Of a DNA stretch of 64,000 nt, positions 5,347-64,000 are shown piece after piece; positions within the stretch are counted from its first letter, which is position 1; the number at the start of each line of letters is the position of its first letter. The stretch covers positions 2,800,769-2,864,768 of the forward strand of contig OZ244713.1 in NCBI GenBank assembly GCA_965218885.1, read 5' to 3'. The position numbers were made by a program, and so were the translations under genes. This DNA comes from a bacterium (lineage in GTDB: Bacteria; UBA8248). The notes under the pieces are model-generated. The model worked only from the letters and a program-made list of their open reading frames with translations, was not told the DNA's origin and did not search any database.

Positions 5347-6231
5347 ATGGGACGAATTCCAGCGTTACTCTTCACGGTAGTTCTTTTATTCGGATGCGGC
5401 GGCGAGGATAAAGTCTCACAAGCTCCCGCCACCATGCCTGAAACCGACTCCACCGAGGGCGTCGTGCTGAATGAGCGCGCGGCGTTGTCCATAAGCAACA
5501 GTTATCTTCGCGTTCAAGCTGCTCCGGGGCTGCCGCCCGTGGAATTGACTCTCGAATCGCAATGCGACGGGCAGTCCTGCACGATTACGGAACCGAATAC
5601 GGGTATCAGTGAATCCGTATCCCTGCAGGAACTCCAATCTACCGACACGGACAGCATAGAGAATCTAAGACAGGTAGTACATTTCAGCCTGACGAAGAGG
5701 GACGTCGCCGTCTATGGCGGTTCCGTCGGCTTCGAATTGGGGGAGGGCAGTTCCGTCCACGCCACGGCTTTTGGTGGCTGGATGGTCTACAACTATTTCC
5801 TCGCGGCTTGGGGAGACTATTCCGATACGACCTACCCGTCGGCCCAAGTCGGTGTGGGGCTTTCCATCGGCAACGCTACCGGAACGCATCCTGCCGTGGA
5901 TGCCATTTATAACGGCGTCATGCTCGGCGTAATCACGGCGGAAGGAGGTACTCAGGGGGACGGCGTGGAAGGAGATGCGACTCTTGAGTTCAGCATAGCG
6001 AATCCCAGAGGCGCTCAGATGGACGTTTCTTTCACCAATATAACGAATCGAGAAACGGGTGGTACGCTTTCCGACAACACATGGAGCGCTCTTCAGGTCC
6101 TGCCAGACGGGACTTTCGATACGGGCGACATTCACGGACTTTTCTACGGGCCGAATCACGAAGAGGTGGGCGGCACATTCAATCGGAGCGGCGTCGCCGG
6201 CGCTTTCGGCGCAAGCAAGGCAAGCGAATAG
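5347..6231 (+). CDS. Putative lipoprotein with C-terminal TbpB/transferrin-binding-like beta-barrel
   Basis: From ATG 5347: MGRIPALLFTVVLLFG-C lipobox. C-terminus GLFYGPNHEEVGGTF...AGAFGA resembles the TbpB-type barrel end. Confidence 0.65.
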   Translation: MGRIPALLFTVVLLFGCGGEDKVSQAPATMPETDSTEGVVLNERAALSISNSYLRVQAAPGLPPVELTLESQCDGQSCTITEPNTGISESVSLQELQSTDTDSIENLRQVVHFSLTKRDVAVYGGSVGFELGEGSSVHATAFGGWMVYNYFLAAWGDYSDTTYPSAQVGVGLSIGNATGTHPAVDAIYNGVMLGVITAEGGTQGDGVEGDATLEFSIANPRGAQMDVSFTNITNRETGGTLSDNTWSALQVLPDGTFDTGDIHGLFYGPNHEEVGGTFNRSGVAGAFGASKASE

Positions 6232-6318
6232 ATTATTCCTCTTGCGCTCAAGGATATCGGTTAACTTGACCTAGAAAATGCTCGCGGAAGGTAGGGCGGA
6301 ATAGCTTCAAAAATAGAG

Positions 6319-6348
6319 AAGACCCGGGGTTTTGCCCCGGGTCTTTTT
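6319..6348. terminator. Intrinsic terminator between convergent genes
   Basis: AAGACCCGGGG-ttttg-CCCCGGGTCTT followed by a T tract. Confidence 0.8.
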
Positions 6349-6370
6349 GTTGCCGTTGCTCCCTCTCCAT

Positions 6371-7360
6371 TCAACCCTCCAGAAAATTCTGCACCTCGTT
6401 GTATAAAGCCTCGCGGCGCCATTCGTACTGGGCGAAATGCGTGGCTTCTCCCAGGACGACCGAGCGCTTCCCGCGGCTTCCCGTGAGCGCGCGGTACACG
6501 GCGGCGAAAATGGGGTCGGTCGAACTCCTGTCGTGATCCCCCCGGATGGTCAGGACCGGACAGGTGATTCTGCTCGCGTCGTAAAGCGGCTTGTTGCGCG
6601 CGCGGTCATAGCCGTCCGCCATCGCGCCGTTGGGTACGCGGACGGCGGGGGTTTTTCTGCGCGCGCCCTCGGGGTCGAATTTGAGTTGTTCTCTCCAGAA
6701 GCGTTTGATCGCCGCCTCTGTCCGCCACTTCGCGTGCTGCCCCTTGGGGATGCTCCCGTCCCAACGCTCGCGCTGGTAGGCTTCCGTGACCCAGCGCCAC
6801 GCCCCTTTTCGAGGGTCCCAGCGTCCGGGGCGCGCGGGGTCTTCCGAGAGGGCCGCCGCCTGGGGATTGTCGTATGCGTAAAACGGAGCATAGAGAGCGA
6901 GGCGGCGGATGCGCGCCTGTTTTCCGGCCGTGAAGGCGGCCGTGGTCGTCGTGCCCCATGACCAGCCGAGGAGGTTCAGCTTGTTGATGGCGTTTTGCTC
7001 GCAGATGAATCGCACGGCGGCGTCGATGTCGCGCACCGCGGTGATTCCCCGCACGGCCGGGGGTTGACCGGCGGCGCTTCGGAGCATTTCCGGAGGCCTC
7101 GTGGAAGGGCCGTAGCCCCGGATACAAAGGGCGTAGACGTGAAAACCACGACTGGAGGCGAAGTCCATCCACGAGTAGCCGGGCAACGGAAGATCGAAGG
7201 CGACGGGCGCCGGGGTGCTTTGCCCGTGCACCATGAGCAGCGTGTTGGCCGTTTCCGACTTCTTCATTCCGCGCGGTTTTTTCTCTCTTAAATGCAGCTT
7301 GATGCCTTCGTCGTGTGAGTCGATGAGGTGGTCTTTTTGATAAATATCTTTCTTTGCCAA
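6371..7360 (-). CDS. Alpha/beta fold hydrolase
   Basis: LMVHG, GYGPS, nucleophile elbow GWSWG, RGDHD, C-terminal His (ATHFA); TTG start. Confidence 0.85.
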   Translation of the reverse strand: MAKKDIYQKDHLIDSHDEGIKLHLREKKPRGMKKSETANTLLMVHGQSTPAPVAFDLPLPGYSWMDFASSRGFHVYALCIRGYGPSTRPPEMLRSAAGQPPAVRGITAVRDIDAAVRFICEQNAINKLNLLGWSWGTTTTAAFTAGKQARIRRLALYAPFYAYDNPQAAALSEDPARPGRWDPRKGAWRWVTEAYQRERWDGSIPKGQHAKWRTEAAIKRFWREQLKFDPEGARRKTPAVRVPNGAMADGYDRARNKPLYDASRITCPVLTIRGDHDRSSTDPIFAAVYRALTGSRGKRSVVLGEATHFAQYEWRREALYNEVQNFLEG

Positions 7361-32586: not shown

Positions 32587-32653
32587 ATACTTCAGGGCGG
32601 CGGTGGAGCTTTGATTCGTGTCCATAAAACATGAAAGCAAGCGAATGTAAAAA

Positions 32654-32892
32654 ATAGTTGAAAAATTCGGGAGTTGTATACATGACTCGGCCTTGGGATT
32701 CCGGGTTTTACATTCGAAAGGGAACGATGTAATCACTCCCCCCTTGAGCAGCCGTAGAGACAGGTCTCGACCTGTCCCTACCAAAGACGGTCCATGCGCT
32801 TTCTGGTTCGTCATTCCGGCTTTCGCCGGAATGACGGTGAACATTCTCGATTGGGGGAGCAACAACCCCTTGGGGGATTTTTCAAAAACTCA
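32654..32892. repeat. Degenerate third copy of the composite repeat family
   Basis: TAGTTGAAAAA (32654), ATCACTCCCCCCTTGAG, GTAGAGACAGGTCTCGACCTGTCCCTAC (32754-32781), GTCATTCCGGCTTTCGCCGGAATGAC (32810-32835), CAACAACCCC and TTTTTCAAAAACTC. Confidence 0.7.
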
Positions 32893-32938
32893 ACACCATT
32901 GGATCCGGCTGGAAAATTAAGAACTATATAAAGGAGAG

Positions 32939-33226
32939 TTGGCAATGCTTTCGATGAATATATCAGCAGCTACGGCGTTAAGTCAGTTGAAAAGTATTCT
33001 ACACCAGACTTTGCAGAACGGTAGGGCAAAATATTGGAATACTAACAATAACAATGAAGCAGAAGAGCAGAGTTTCTATTGGTTGTTTTGTTGGGCTAAA
33101 ACTACAAGAAGGGGTTGTGGCCCTTATGCCGCCCAAGCAATGGAAGCGCTAAGAGAGATTTTTGATGACGCCCTAATTCAACAGACGTCATTACAATATG
33201 CTAGGGATTCACGCGACTATCGATAA
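32939..33226 (+). CDS. Hypothetical AT-rich orphan protein (about 95 aa)
   Basis: SD AAAGGAG before TTG 32939/ATG 32945; open frame in an AT-rich island; no recognisable motif. Confidence 0.5.
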   Translation: MAMLSMNISAATALSQLKSILHQTLQNGRAKYWNTNNNNEAEEQSFYWLFCWAKTTRRGCGPYAAQAMEALREIFDDALIQQTSLQYARDSRDYR

Positions 33227-53682: not shown

Positions 53683-53858
53683 TCTCCACGAAAGAGAGAA
53701 ATATGGCGACCCGCCTATCTCACCCTATTTTTCCGTTTTGGTCAATTCGCGGAATTTCGCTCGTTTTTCAATATCTCTGCTTGCATCCTAGCTAGGGTGG
53801 GAACGTGGAGTCACGTTAGTGGGGCGGATTATGGTATCGGCGTGAGGGTTGAGTATAG

Positions 53859-54413
53859 TCAAGAGGACTGAAGAGTTCTCAGAATGAACAGCAACAAGTA
53901 GATAATAGCTGCTATCCATATAATGCTCCGCAATCCACATCCAGAACCTCTGGACTGAGCCCGAACTCGCTGGAGTGGGACGGGTTCGTGACCGGTTATT
54001 TCATGGAAACGTTCCGCCGACTGATCTCTTAAGGACTTAAGCGCCGCTTCGAATCCTGCGGCATCCTCGCGTGTAGAGAAAGGACTGGACGTCCAAAGCA
54101 GCTTCGGATTGCCACCGGCAGTAGATTCGACTTTGTTGGCTACATGAGCATTCAACCTCGCCCGAACATTGGCGGAGTGCCCCACGTAGTGGCCGTAGTC
54201 GGTATCCAACAGGTACACATAGAACTTGTTGCGACCCAGCTTCGCATCGCGCTCGGACTGGCCGGCCAGATGCTCCGGGTCGCGCCACTTGCTTCGGCGG
54301 CGACGCATCTGACAGGTGTAGCAGCGCGTGTAGCGAAGGCGTATTCTCCGCCCGCAGTCGGCACAGATGTTTAAGCGCATCATAGTTGCTACCTGACTCA
54401 CATGCCTGCGCAA
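53859..54413 (-). CDS. GIY-YIG nuclease-like protein with N-terminal CxxC/CxxC and C-terminal TM helix
   Basis: FYVYLL...HYVGHSANVRARLNAH...EDAAGFE; CADC..CYTC; IIWIAAIIYLLLFIL. Start may be 54383. Confidence 0.7.
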   Translation of the reverse strand: MRRHVSQVATMMRLNICADCGRRIRLRYTRCYTCQMRRRRSKWRDPEHLAGQSERDAKLGRNKFYVYLLDTDYGHYVGHSANVRARLNAHVANKVESTAGGNPKLLWTSSPFSTREDAAGFEAALKSLRDQSAERFHEITGHEPVPLQRVRAQSRGSGCGLRSIIWIAAIIYLLLFILRTLQSS

Positions 54414-54589
54414 TGGCTAGAAAGATCTCGGCGCAGCTTTTTTGCTTTCACTGAACCGATGACGTTCTAGTTACATTGGATCGGCATCCTCGTGTGTTCG
54501 CAGGTTCTTGGGGCGAAAACTGGTACTTTCTCTCTCTCGTGTGGTTGCCTCTAGGCTCTTGGCAGTGAAGCAAGCCCCGCGTACTCAAA

Positions 54590-61069: not shown

Positions 61070-61753
61070 ATGCCCCATCCTCTGGTCGAGTTGAAAGAGG
61101 TCTCCAAAACCTACGTCGCGGGCGACGCGCTCGTCCACGCGCTCAAAGACGTGAGCTTCCGGGCGGAACCAGGCGAGTTTATCACGGTTTCGGGCCCGAG
61201 CGGGTCGGGCAAGAGCACGCTTCTGCACTTGATGGGCGCGGTCGACGCCCCCTCGAGCGGCGAGGTCTTTTTCGACGGACGGGACATATCTGGCCTCAAC
61301 GATGAAGGTTTGAGCGAAATTCGCCTGAAAGAGGTGGGTTTCATCCATCAGTTTTTCCATCTCATGCCGACGATGACCGCGTATGAAAACGTCGCCCTGC
61401 CCCTCGTGCTCCAAGGCCAGAAACGGGCGGAGACCAATGAAGTGGTCGAAAACGCACTGGCGCGTGTGGGGCTTGAGAACCGGATGCGCAGCTTCCCGAG
61501 GCAACTCTCGGGCGGTGAGATGCAAAGGGTGGCCGTCGCGCGCGCCATCATCCACAAGCCCCGCCTCATCCTCGCCGATGAGCCGACGGGGAATCTCGAT
61601 TCCGAGAATTCGCAGAAAGTCCTGGAACTCATTTCGGAACTCCACAAAGAAGATGGTTTTACGGTCGTCATGGCCACGCACGACAAGATGCCCTTGCGCT
61701 ACGCCACGCGGAGTGTCGGGATAACCGATGGCCGCCTGGAGGGGGGGTGTTGA
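61070..61753 (+). CDS. ABC transporter ATP-binding protein (LolD/MacB-like)
   Basis: GPSGSGKST, LSGGEMQRVAVARA, LADEPTGNLD, H-loop ATHD. The last codons and stop come from the inserted element. Confidence 0.95.
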   Translation: MPHPLVELKEVSKTYVAGDALVHALKDVSFRAEPGEFITVSGPSGSGKSTLLHLMGAVDAPSSGEVFFDGRDISGLNDEGLSEIRLKEVGFIHQFFHLMPTMTAYENVALPLVLQGQKRAETNEVVENALARVGLENRMRSFPRQLSGGEMQRVAVARAIIHKPRLILADEPTGNLDSENSQKVLELISELHKEDGFTVVMATHDKMPLRYATRSVGITDGRLEGGC

Positions 61754-62315
61754 AAAAGACCTGGTTTCGTAATTCGGCGTATGGAACCAACCGACGAGAA
61801 CGCCTAACAAAAACTCCCTTTAAAGGGGTTGTTGAAAAAGCCCCTCGATGCGGGAAAACCACCGTCATTCCGGCGAAAGCTGGAATCCATTTTATGATTT
61901 TTGCTTTCGTTTTCGCATTTGATTCCGACTCGCGGGAGGGAGCGTCGCGCCCGAATCCGGAACGGATGAGGTGGATATATATGGCGGAGTCCGTATCTTT
62001 CCCGGCCGGGAGCGAGGACGTCCGGGCGAAAGGCCAAAAACAAAGGCGAAAATGGATTCCGGCTTTCGCCGGAATGACGAACAAAACCACATCGCCTCTT
62101 GTAGTGACAGCCCCTCCACGGGGCTGTCCCACAGGTCGCGACCTGTCCCTACGGCGAACGATCTTGAAAGTCGGACAAGGGTTTTTTCAACAACCCCCTC
62201 AAGGGGGGAGTGATTCTCTTCTCTCTCGTCTGTTGGCAATGCTGTTCATAAGCGAAGTTCGCAGCCGCGCCGGTGGGGGTGAATTCCGAGCGAGTAGAGG
62301 TTTTTCCACAACCCC
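61743..62315. mobile_element. MITE-like composite element (copy 2) with 5-bp GGAGG target-site duplication
   Basis: Outer TIRs GGGGGTGTTGAAAAA (61743) and TTTTTCCACAACCCC (ending 62315), flanked by GGAGG at 61738-61742 and 62316-62320. Inner TIR pair 61825-62197; ATTCC-N8-GGAAT pair 61864-61889 and 62053-62078; GTAG REPs 62101-62152. Confidence 0.8.
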
Positions 62316-62330
62316 GGAGGAGGCGGGCTG

Positions 62331-64000
62331 ATGGGCGTCTTGGGCGCGCTCTTGCGTCTTCTCGCCTGGCGGCGCCTGAAGGAAGAGCCGTTTCGCCTGC
62401 TGCTCACGCTGGTGGGCGTGGCGCTTGGCGTCGCCGTGTTCATCGCCATCAAGCTCGCGAACGGGGCGTCCACCCAGGCGTTTGAGAACAGCTTGGTGGC
62501 CATTTCCGGAAAGACGCAACTGGAAGTTTCCGCAGGCGGTCTGGGCGTGAATGAAGAGTTGATTCTGCGGCTCCGGGCGATGCGGGAGGTGAAAAGAGCG
62601 GCGCCTGTCATCCAGCAACACGCCTGGGTGAGGAGGGCGGACGGCTCAGGCGCCAGGTGGCGGCGCGGCGCGCCATCGCAAGGACGCGCCGTCCTGGCTT
62701 TGGGGCTCGACTTGCTGGGGGATAATGATTTCAGGGGCTATGCGTTCGAGAATAAATACTCGCGCGAGCAAATTCTCTCGCGCATCGCCGACCCACGGGG
62801 TCTGTTCATCGCCCGGGGCGTAGCCGATGCGCTGGGCGTCGGTGTAGGCGATTTCGTCGAAATCGAGGCCGCGCGCAGAATGCGCTTTCGCGTGCGGGGC
62901 GTCCTTAGACCTGAGGGCATGGCGAAATCCATGGACGGCCGCCTCCTCATCATGGATATCGGCGTCGCGCAAGAAGTTTTTGAGCGTTTCGGCTGTTTGG
63001 ACCGGATCGATCTGATTCTAGAAGATAAGGGCGAAATCGGGTCGGTCAGTAAAAAGATTCAAAATCTCCTGCCGTCCGGCGCGGTGGCCGCGCGGCCTGC
63101 GCGGCGCGGAAGCGACGTGGAGAAAATGCTGGCGTCGTTTCAGTTGAACCTCACGGTGCTGAGCGTCATCGCGCTGCTGGTGGGCTGTTTTCTGATCTAC
63201 AACACGATGTCGGCATCGGTATTGCGGCGCAGGGGTGAAATCGCCACCCTGCGCTCGCTGGGCATGACGGCCAAGGCGATCATCTTTCTCTACGGAGCGG
63301 AGGCGTTTTGCATCGGCTTGGCGGGCTCGTGTCTGGGCGTTGCGATGGGGGTGTTCATGGCCCAGGGCGCGCTTTCGTTCATCACCCAGACGATCCGCAA
63401 CCTGTACGCATTTCTGGAAGTGCGTCATGTCCCCCTGGGTCCCGAGGCGCTCCTTTGGGGATTCGGCGTAGGGCTGGGCGTTTCTCTCGTGTCCGGTCTT
63501 TTTCCGGCGGTGGCGGCGTCGCGTCAGACTCCGCGCCAGGGCGTCGTGGACAGGCGGGGAAAAGTGGAGGTGCGGCCTGCGGTCACCGCCGCCCTGGTTG
63601 TAAGCGCCCTGCTCGTCGCCTTCATCGCCTATTGGCTGAATATACAGGCGCTGGCGCGAGGAACTCCTCTGCCCGGCTATCTATCGGCGGCGGCGGTCAT
63701 TCTGGCCACCGCGCTCGCGAGCCTGCCGGTCGTCTTGTTCGGCTCTTTCGTCGTCCGGCGCATGCTGGGCGGAAGCGCCAACGGTTGGCTCGCCGCGCAC
63801 GGTTTGGGTAGGCATCCGCATCGCAACGGCGTCACGCTGTCTTCATTGGCGATCGCCGTGGCCATGCTGGTGAGCCTCATCATCATGATCGAGAGTTTCA
63901 GGGCCACGGTGGAAATCTGGACGCATCAGACGCTCAAGGCGGATTTCTACGCAGCACCCGCGGCGCGCTTCATCAAGGGCTCACGGGCGAGCATCTCGGA
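62331..64000 (+). CDS. ABC transporter permease, FtsX/MacB-like (runs off the window end)
   Basis: ATG 62331; LLTLVGVALGVAVFIAIKLAN; MLASFQLNLTVLSVIALLVGCFLIYNTM..RRRGEIATLRSLG. Absent from the ORF track because it has no stop in the window. Confidence 0.92.
   Translation, partial: MGVLGALLRLLAWRRLKEEPFRLLLTLVGVALGVAVFIAIKLANGASTQAFENSLVAISGKTQLEVSAGGLGVNEELILRLRAMREVKRAAPVIQQHAWVRRADGSGARWRRGAPSQGRAVLALGLDLLGDNDFRGYAFENKYSREQILSRIADPRGLFIARGVADALGVGVGDFVEIEAARRMRFRVRGVLRPEGMAKSMDGRLLIMDIGVAQEVFERFGCLDRIDLILEDKGEIGSVSKKIQNLLPSGAVAARPARRGSDVEKMLASFQLNLTVLSVIALLVGCFLIYNTMSASVLRRRGEIATLRSLGMTAKAIIFLYGAEAFCIGLAGSCLGVAMGVFMAQGALSFITQTIRNLYAFLEVRHVPLGPEALLWGFGVGLGVSLVSGLFPAVAASRQTPRQGVVDRRGKVEVRPAVTAALVVSALLVAFIAYWLNIQALARGTPLPGYLSAAAVILATALASLPVVLFGSFVVRRMLGGSANGWLAAHGLGRHPHRNGVTLSSLAIAVAMLVSLIIMIESFRATVEIWTHQTLKADFYAAPAARFIKGSRASIS

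Follow-up and report, generated by a model that had tools for sequence, protein, structure and literature searches.

Short, non-coding, multicopy elements with terminal inverted repeats that are moved in trans by a resident insertion sequence (IS), such as the Correia elements of Neisseria, ERIC/IRU of enterobacteria and RUP of pneumococci, often lie between co-transcribed genes and fold as long RNA hairpins. [quoted passage not shown] Insertion in the loop or centre of repetitive extragenic palindromic (REP) sequences is characteristic of IS1397, ISKpn1 and ISPpu9/10, which belong to the IS3 and IS110 families, and Tobes and Pareja reportedly described IS elements targeting REP palindromes in 2006. 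The IS1182 family offers a further precedent in IS1272, which integrates in hairpins without a sequence consensus, with repeated independent insertions in one hairpin (PMC4923244, PMC5678879). Here we analyze a 64,000-nt stretch of the genome of a bacterium of the GTDB lineage UBA8248 (GenBank assembly GCA_965218885.1, contig OZ244713.1, positions 2,800,769 to 2,864,768, forward strand; hereafter the window, numbered from its first letter), in which a 573-bp block separates the ATPase and permease genes of an ATP-binding cassette (ABC) transporter operon. The block very probably originated when a MITE with IS1182-type ends inserted into a hairpin at the TGATG junction of the two genes, with duplication of GGAGG.

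Results

The ATPase–permease junction

The block (61743-62315) is bracketed by two copies of GGAGG (61738-61742 and 62316-62320), and its ends are imperfect inverted repeats (left, GGGGGTGTTGAAAAAG; right, reverse-complemented, GGGGTTGTGGAAAAAC). The ATPase open reading frame (ORF; 61070-61753) closes with ...GGC CGC CTG GAG GGG GGG TGT TGA, and in silico deletion of 61743-62320 yields CTG GAG GAG GCG GGC TGA, the final A of which (62331) is the first base of the permease ATG. A first-pass annotation, made from the letters of the window alone, had pointed to the flanking GGAGG copies and to this restored reading with its ATG overlap, and direct reading of the sequence confirmed both. The same annotation had proposed that the insert took over the last ATPase codons and the stop, leaving the permease Shine-Dalgarno sequence in place, and this also holds: GGC* is drawn from the left repeat, and GGAGG stands 10 nt 5′ of the ATG. 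The junction comprises the following features:

61070..61753 (+), ABC transporter ATP-binding protein (LolD/MacB/FtsE-like), 227 amino acids (aa); Pfam ABC_tran, 1.3e-32
at the 3′ end of this gene, codons GGG GGG TGT and the TGA stop, which are left terminal repeat sequence of the insert
61731..61742 (+), left half of the target hairpin (GCCGCCT) with the left duplication copy
61738..61742 (+), left copy of the 5-bp target-site duplication GGAGG, present as a single copy in empty alleles
62316..62320 (+), right copy of the 5-bp duplication GGAGG, now the permease Shine-Dalgarno sequence, 10 nt 5′ of the ATG
62321..62331 (+), relic of the old ATPase tail (..AG GCG GGC TGA), now non-coding spacer, with its TGA overlapping the permease ATG
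62331..63998 (+), MacB/FtsX-type permease, continuing past the window end; Pfam MacB_PCD and FtsX; orthologues of 865 aa

The top NCBIfam matches of the ATPase are LolD and FtsE, each under its cut-off, and full-length orthologues of the permease are P0002 and P0009.

We located the orthologous ATPase and permease genes in 19 other same-genus genomes (Nitrospinota metagenome assemblies, some of them titled as sponge bins) and read the junctions. The site is insert-free, with a single GGAGG-type sequence, in six of these genomes, including the sister genome G022, whose flanking genes are 94% identical in nucleotide sequence to those of the source genome (four-fold-site divergence of 11.6%). The empty junctions read:

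G022, ctggaggcggcggtaTGATGagc, core CTGGAGGCGGCGGTATGATG; ATPase tail LEAAV*; TGATG overlap
G006, empty; tail LEAAR*; TGATG overlap
G004, empty; tail LGTTG*
G009, empty; tail LDEADS*
G008, empty; tail LRAADR*
G019, empty; stop and start overlap
four more assemblies near G022, ctggaggcggcgggaTGATG, core GCGGCGGGATGATG; tail LEAAG*; TGATG overlap

The ATPase of the empty-site orthologues has 227 aa, as does the occupied form. An empty allele had been predicted by the first-pass annotation, which let its account of the locus stand or fall with it; the insert-free relatives with LEAAV, LEAAG or LEAAR tails and a TGATG overlap are that allele. The left junction reads T-GGAGG-GGGG and the right junction CCCC-GGAGG-C, and because occupied and empty alleles could be compared, both the limits of the element and the length of the duplication are fixed: the element ends are GGGG...CCCC, and the duplication at this site is exactly 5 bp.

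The source-genome lineage has flank variants of its own (GGAGGAGGCGGGCTGATGGGC). Two metagenome pattern scans were made for the empty allele of this lineage; the first gave no matches, and the second gave 29, none from this operon. The 90% protein cluster contains only one further close relative of the source genome, a contig of 5x coverage (L143; ENA ERZ25067264). At positions 2240-2340 of this contig, a left flank 97.7% identical to the source genome, including the first 11 nt of the MITE end, is joined directly to a G022-like empty right flank (94.2%), and two short pieces of the insert interior are embedded within the permease gene. The contig resembles a consensus built from a mixture of both alleles, occupied and empty, and hints that the two coexist in one sample.

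A nest of repeat elements

The first-pass annotation took the 573 bp for a single element, which proved incorrect; the block is built from at least three. An outer MITE of ~195 bp encloses an inner MITE of 373 bp with same-family ends, which encloses a third inverted-repeat element of an unrelated family:

61743..61758 (+), left terminal inverted repeat of the outer MITE, GGGGGTGTTGAAAAAG
61743..61824 (+), 82-bp left arm of that MITE, with the left half of the central hairpin (ACTCCCTTTAAA) at its 3′ end
61825..62197 (+), inner nested MITE, 373 bp, seated in the central hairpin of the outer MITE; well-preserved ends GGGGTTGTTGAAAAAG ... TTTTTTCAACAACCCC
61863..62079 (+), third-level element, 217 bp, within the inner MITE; 54-nt inverted arms starting CGTCATTCCGGCGAAAGC; different dispersed repeat family
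62198..62315 (+), 118-bp right arm of the outer MITE, its 5′ end formed by the right half of the central hairpin (CTCAAGGGGGGAGT)
62300..62315 (+), right terminal inverted repeat, GTTTTTCCACAACCCC

Taken without its nested part, the outer MITE (61743-61824 plus 62198-62315) has the central hairpin ACTCCC...GGGGGGAGT, and its 16-nt terminal repeats depart from the family consensus by one change on the left and two on the right. The inner MITE is flanked by a degenerate repeat (TTAAA / CTCAA, matching at 3/5 positions). Inside it, the third-level element, whose arms are 78% complementary (inverted repeat I1) and which has many partial paralogues, is followed by REP-like palindromes. Paralogues of the outer left arm in the source genome reach at most 89% identity (88-89%) over the first ~51 nt, and the best own-genome paralogue of the right arm reaches 78%; right-arm copies at 80-85% occur at many loci across 17 same-genus genomes.

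Folded as RNA, the insert has a predicted energy of -272.9 kcal/mol (z = -6.4). An Rfam scan of the insert matched no family, a search for sigma-70-like promoters found none inside it, and the scanned region has three terminator-like hairpins (2.4 expected), a single weak one of them in the insert. A 194-aa ORF (61747-62331, +) is open through the entire insert, stops at the former TGA of the ATPase and resembles translated repeats; it contains the motifs VIPAKAGIH and IPAFAGMT, which we take to be typical of translated repeat DNA in databases, and neither of the two long ORFs crossing the insert has a Pfam match. The 194-aa ORF is spurious, albeit of a kind that gene callers may label as a hypothetical protein.

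The classification as a MITE follows from several properties: the element is short and non-coding, has terminal inverted repeats, made a duplication that was confirmed against an empty site, occurs in many dispersed copies and shares its ends with a transposase-encoding element. REP sequences and bacterial interspersed mosaic elements, which consist of single palindromes of 20-40 nt lacking both terminal inverted repeats and a duplication, and which are moved by REP-associated tyrosine transposases (RAYT) encoded by an accompanying gene, do not fit, in that both the outer and inner elements carry terminal repeats and a duplication, and the Y1_Tnp homologue of the genome has an internal stop. 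Some of the innermost modules may nonetheless be REP-like.

The repeat family and a candidate mobilizer

The window has 9 occurrences of the end motif GGGTTGTTGAAAAA (with at most 2 mismatches), compared with 0.33 expected, and the 3.92-Mb genome has 185, compared with 29 in a reversed-sequence control (~6-fold). Matches to the outer arms number 33-47 per genome in most same-genus genomes. MITE-type ends also bound a 1527-bp IS present in seven copies (end pairs exactly 1513 bp apart), at C1:1531969-1533495 and then at 1904091, 2006093, 2377051, 2689465, 2707794 and 3852075. Six of the copies are identical and the other has 6 differences; because of the six identical copies, the IS is probably active now. 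Its 474-aa ORF matches NF033551, the NCBIfam model of IS1182-family transposases, at 356.7 bits (cut-off 270), as well as Pfam DUF772, DDE_Tnp_1_6 and DDE_Tnp_1. The left terminal repeat of the MITE is identical to the left end of the IS (GGGGCTGTTGAAAAAG) at 15/16 positions, and the likeness of the MITE left arm to the IS extends beyond the repeat into the subterminal ~45 nt (TTCGGYGTAWGGA). We infer that the IS1182-type transposase moves the MITEs in trans.

Two other loci of the genome concern transposition enzymes. A 1646-bp unit with IS1182-type ends (C1:2679912-2681557) was considered as a second IS1182-type element and rejected, its ORF reading by eye as IS110-type (MEGVYIIGIDLAKQNF...); the unit probably arose by nesting of an IS110 element within a MITE. 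A homologue of Y1_Tnp, of the IS200/RAYT type (C1:3074687-3075025, -; 34.6 bits), is interrupted by an internal TAG and may be related to the REP-like palindromes (GTAGGGACAGGTCGCGACCTGTCCCTAC) scattered in repeat arrays.

Repeat DNA of this kind also lies elsewhere in the window. A second composite MITE of the same family (705-1217) is located 3′ of a ribulose-phosphate epimerase-like gene and is present in G022 too, with different inner modules. In G022, the epimerase gene has its native stop (GGTTGA), and 24 nt separate it from the terminal repeat; the source genome has lost 34 nt between the GGTTGA of the epimerase and the TGTTGA of the repeat, so that a microhomology deletion fused the gene end to the repeat. 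The MITE was considered as the source of the epimerase stop (window ~705), and this was rejected, the stop being native in G022. At 32591-33225, ~570 bp are missing from G022; in them lie part of a MITE, with CGTCATTCCGGC arms, and, just 5′ of dnaK, a 95-aa orphan ORF (32939-33226) without a Pfam match.

Hairpin target and duplications at other copies

Folding predictions identify the insertion target as a short GC-rich hairpin (GCCGCCTGGAGGCGGC), of which GGAGG forms the loop-proximal part. The empty site of G022 (GCCGCC-TGGA-GGCGGC) folds at -14.6 kcal/mol, and the reconstructed empty site of the source genome at -13.8 kcal/mol with GGAGG in the loop. The mean for 11 empty sites reconstructed from end pairs with duplications is -11.5 kcal/mol, compared with -5.8 kcal/mol (sd 3.4) for random genomic 31-mers, and the duplicated bases fall in the predicted loop at most of these 11 sites. 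Most family members are located in CCCCCC-TTGA-GGGGGG hairpins of other repeats, and all seven IS copies sit between the C-run and the G-run of a hairpin. In the mechanism that we propose, the IS1182-type transposase would recognize extruded hairpins and cut with a 5-nt stagger around the loop; a MITE carrying the 16-bp ends of the resident IS1182-family IS would thereby insert in the hairpin at the ATPase 3′ end, where TGATG joined both genes.

To evaluate duplications elsewhere, element ends were set as GGGG...CCCC for 34 plus/minus end pairs, with mismatched left/right pairs as a control. An exact 5-bp direct repeat flanks 8/34 pairs and a 4-bp repeat 3/34, with none longer and a mode of exactly 5 bp; direct repeats of at least 4 bp thus occur in 32% of true pairs compared with 7% of mismatched pairs. 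Non-hairpin examples of the duplication include GGAGG, ATGA(G), AGTT and GAAGA. Queries with flanks only against G022, G006 and G004 yielded sites that are empty there. Whole-region MAFFT alignments of these other occupied and empty loci were disturbed by divergent intergenic DNA, leaving two loci with readable junctions (1340667 and 1426329), at which AGTT and ATAG are duplicated relative to the empty G022 sites as read by eye.

The first-pass claim that the family transposes with a 5-bp duplication is therefore upheld as to the enrichment over the control and the mode of 5 bp, but not as a general rule, insofar as exact repeats flank only 8/34 end pairs and 1/7 IS copies. Several points weigh against it: (i) about two thirds of the end pairs lack a clean duplication; (ii) among the full-length IS copies, one of the seven has an exact 5-bp repeat (CTCAA) and three have near-matches; and (iii) three full-length IS copies share the left loop half TTGTCG at unrelated sites. 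The pairs without a clean repeat are likely due to nesting, decay or mis-paired ends in composite arrays, and the shared TTGTCG could come from recombination between identical IS copies or from a replacement mode like that proposed for IS1272. The family may also move without a simple duplication.

History of the site

In 13 other species, this site likewise holds an insert, of 236-805 bp and of differing internal content, with the same duplication (GGAGG ... GGAGG or GGAAG) and the same orientation; the event is therefore not a unique recent one. Within the clade of these 13 species, the duplication and the ends stay the same, but the sequence immediately interior to the left end is of at least six unrelated kinds. 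A maximum-likelihood tree from 1389 nt of ATPase and permease places the source genome as sister to the empty G022 (98/96), grouped with the empty G006 and G004, and outside a 100/100 clade that contains the 13 occupied genomes and, with weak support, one long-branch empty genome. This tree requires at least three changes of occupancy state. Against the inserts of G010 and G011 at this site, the outer arms show 85-88% identity (left arm versus G011, 86% over 115 nt and 88% over positions 1-72; right arm versus G010, 87% over 152 nt), but the likeness to non-orthologous copies in other genomes is equally high (e.g. 85% for G022:755493). For this comparison, the divergence at four-fold sites of the flanking genes is 26-33%.

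In the sister species G020 and G013 (L025 and L028), the right terminal repeat is largely missing at the orthologous junction (...GGGGTTTCC|TGGAGGAAGCGG...), and the MITE there can no longer be excised by a transposase.

Alternative explanations

The proposed insertion was weighed against accounts that dispense either with the event or with the enzyme. If no insertion had occurred, the long intergenic region would be ancestral and the compact TGATG junctions would be secondary deletions, and the long form is indeed found in 14/20 genomes. However, the compact form is that of the most distant same-genus genomes, G008 and G019, which lack the whole repeat family, and compact alleles encode a full-length ATPase of equal size; as the long form consists of dispersed repeats and has inverted repeats and a 5-bp direct repeat at its borders, we regard this account as extremely improbable. 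Mobilization by another enzyme, namely a REP-associated Y1 transposase or an IS110-type recombinase, would make the shared ends a coincidental target or structural motif. The genome offers candidates for both in the Y1_Tnp homologue (34.6 bits, internal TAG) and the IS110-type gene between IS1182-type ends, many of the composite modules are REP-like palindromes, and several IS copies lack matching duplications. Set against these points are the 15/16 agreement of MITE and IS ends, continuing into the subterminal ~45 nt, and the fact that, of all elements with these ends, the 1527-bp IS alone codes for a full-length transposase over the family cut-off and, to judge from its six identical copies, is active. 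In addition, a staggered-cut duplication is a signature of DDE enzymes and not of Y1 or IS110 enzymes, so the duplication seen here fits the former, and a different mobilizer appears unlikely by a wide measure.

Granted a MITE insertion, the question of its age is more evenly poised. We slightly favor an independent hit of the source genome on the same hairpin, apart from the insert of the 13 species, because parsimony points to it, because IS1272 sets a precedent for one hairpin being hit repeatedly, and because the arm identity exceeds what neutral orthologous DNA should retain at 26-33% four-fold divergence. Three observations tell against an independent hit: (i) the source genome has no close source copy (right arm 78%; left arm 88-89% over ~50 nt), such that the insertion is not a recent one and may be older than the divergence from G022; (ii) the inserts of G010 and G011 have the same orientation and architecture, including the arm types and a nested element at the central hairpin; and (iii) left-arm positions 52-72 match only the G011 copy at this site. 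A single ancient insertion in the common ancestor with the 13-species clade accordingly has a substantial chance of being correct, albeit somewhat under one half. G022, G006 and G004 (and G009) would then have become empty in one of three ways: the insert was excised precisely between the GGAGG copies, a presence/absence polymorphism of the ancestor was sorted, or homologous recombination replaced the allele. Such an origin would suit the identical site, duplication and orientation in all 14 occupied genomes, the combination of a G011-like left arm and a G010-like right arm with another element nested at the same central hairpin in each, and the want of a close donor copy; moreover, long palindromes flanked by short direct repeats are prone to precise deletion, as in Tn5/Tn10 excision. 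The cost is at least three to four footprint-free losses versus two gains on the local tree. Furthermore, the arms are no more similar to the same-site inserts than to non-orthologous copies (G022:755493, 85%), they are more alike than neutral orthologous DNA of this divergence, and the IS family is documented to hit one hairpin repeatedly (PMC4923244).

A stronger version of the independent hit, in which the junction hairpin is a landing pad struck repeatedly by IS1182-type MITEs and resident copies are replaced or remodeled, is rather doubtful. An incoming element that replaces the resident stem-loop would explain both the varied left-end interiors and the TTGTCG shared by three IS copies.

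Consequences for the operon

The native ATPase tail, (E/A)AG*, has been replaced by Gly-Gly-Cys-stop from the left terminal repeat, while the protein stays at 227 aa; the C-terminal residues of this ATPase vary freely among relatives. The TGATG overlap is lost, and the genes are now 577 nt apart with nested palindromes between them, although the permease keeps GGAGG 10 nt 5′ of its ATG. From this arrangement, the two genes would still be co-transcribed but no longer translationally coupled, and the ATPase:permease stoichiometry may have shifted, as the first-pass annotation suggested. Both genes are intact in all 14 occupied genomes, so the split operon has been tolerated for long periods. In annotation terms, what lies between the ABC genes is repeat DNA rather than a gene, and the ATPase has three MITE-encoded residues and a MITE-encoded stop. 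The 20 related genomes, in 6 of which the operon is compact and in 14 of which 236-805 nt of structured RNA split it, constitute a natural series of one operon that could be used to gauge the cost of lost coupling.

Other differences in the window

Two further differences from G022 were noted. At 53771-54587, ~720 bp are absent from the collinear region of G022; they include a 184-aa ORF (53859-54413, -), in which a Cys-rich N-terminus precedes a GIY-YIG nuclease domain (25.6 bits, cut-off 22.6) and which may be a small mobile endonuclease gene. At 6214-6371, G022 has ~1.6 kb extra (L101:18475 to L102:76) that is absent from the source genome.

Discussion

The event described here is well documented but ordinary, and the element is of a known MITE type. 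Its interest lies in the clean pairing of occupied and empty sites for an IS1182-type MITE of the Nitrospinota, a phylum represented here by metagenome assemblies alone. Should the junction hairpin prove to be a site of repeated hits and replacement, the first 11 nt of the MITE end would have been recruited as ATPase coding sequence and stop in 14 species, and the locus would provide the first natural record of loop-duplicating IS1182-family transposition, otherwise only a hypothetical pathway.

Among the MITEs with which it may be compared, the Correia, ERIC and RUP elements have other parent IS families (IS630-like for RUP) and other duplications (TA for Correia). The likeness to the REP-targeting IS elements consists in insertion at a palindrome loop, with the difference that here the same type of enzyme also hits a unique hairpin in coding sequence. 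Duplication length is variable in the IS1182 family.

The comparison with IS1272 and TnSha1 of staphylococci is closer, since the transposase family is the same (the IS here matches NF033551 over the cut-off) and they have a hairpin target without primary-sequence consensus (PMC4923244, PMC5678879). IS1272 is an autonomous IS, whereas the element here is a non-coding derivative in Nitrospinota. The two also differ in their products: IS1272 removes part or all of the hairpin and gives no duplication (PMC5678879), whereas the element here keeps the hairpin and duplicates about 5 bp (sometimes 4) at the loop. A duplication of the loop has been drawn as the hypothetical 'pathway c' (PMC5678879). 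Hairpin-loop targeting with a 5-bp duplication, as the present locus shows, complements the hairpin-deleting behavior of IS1272.

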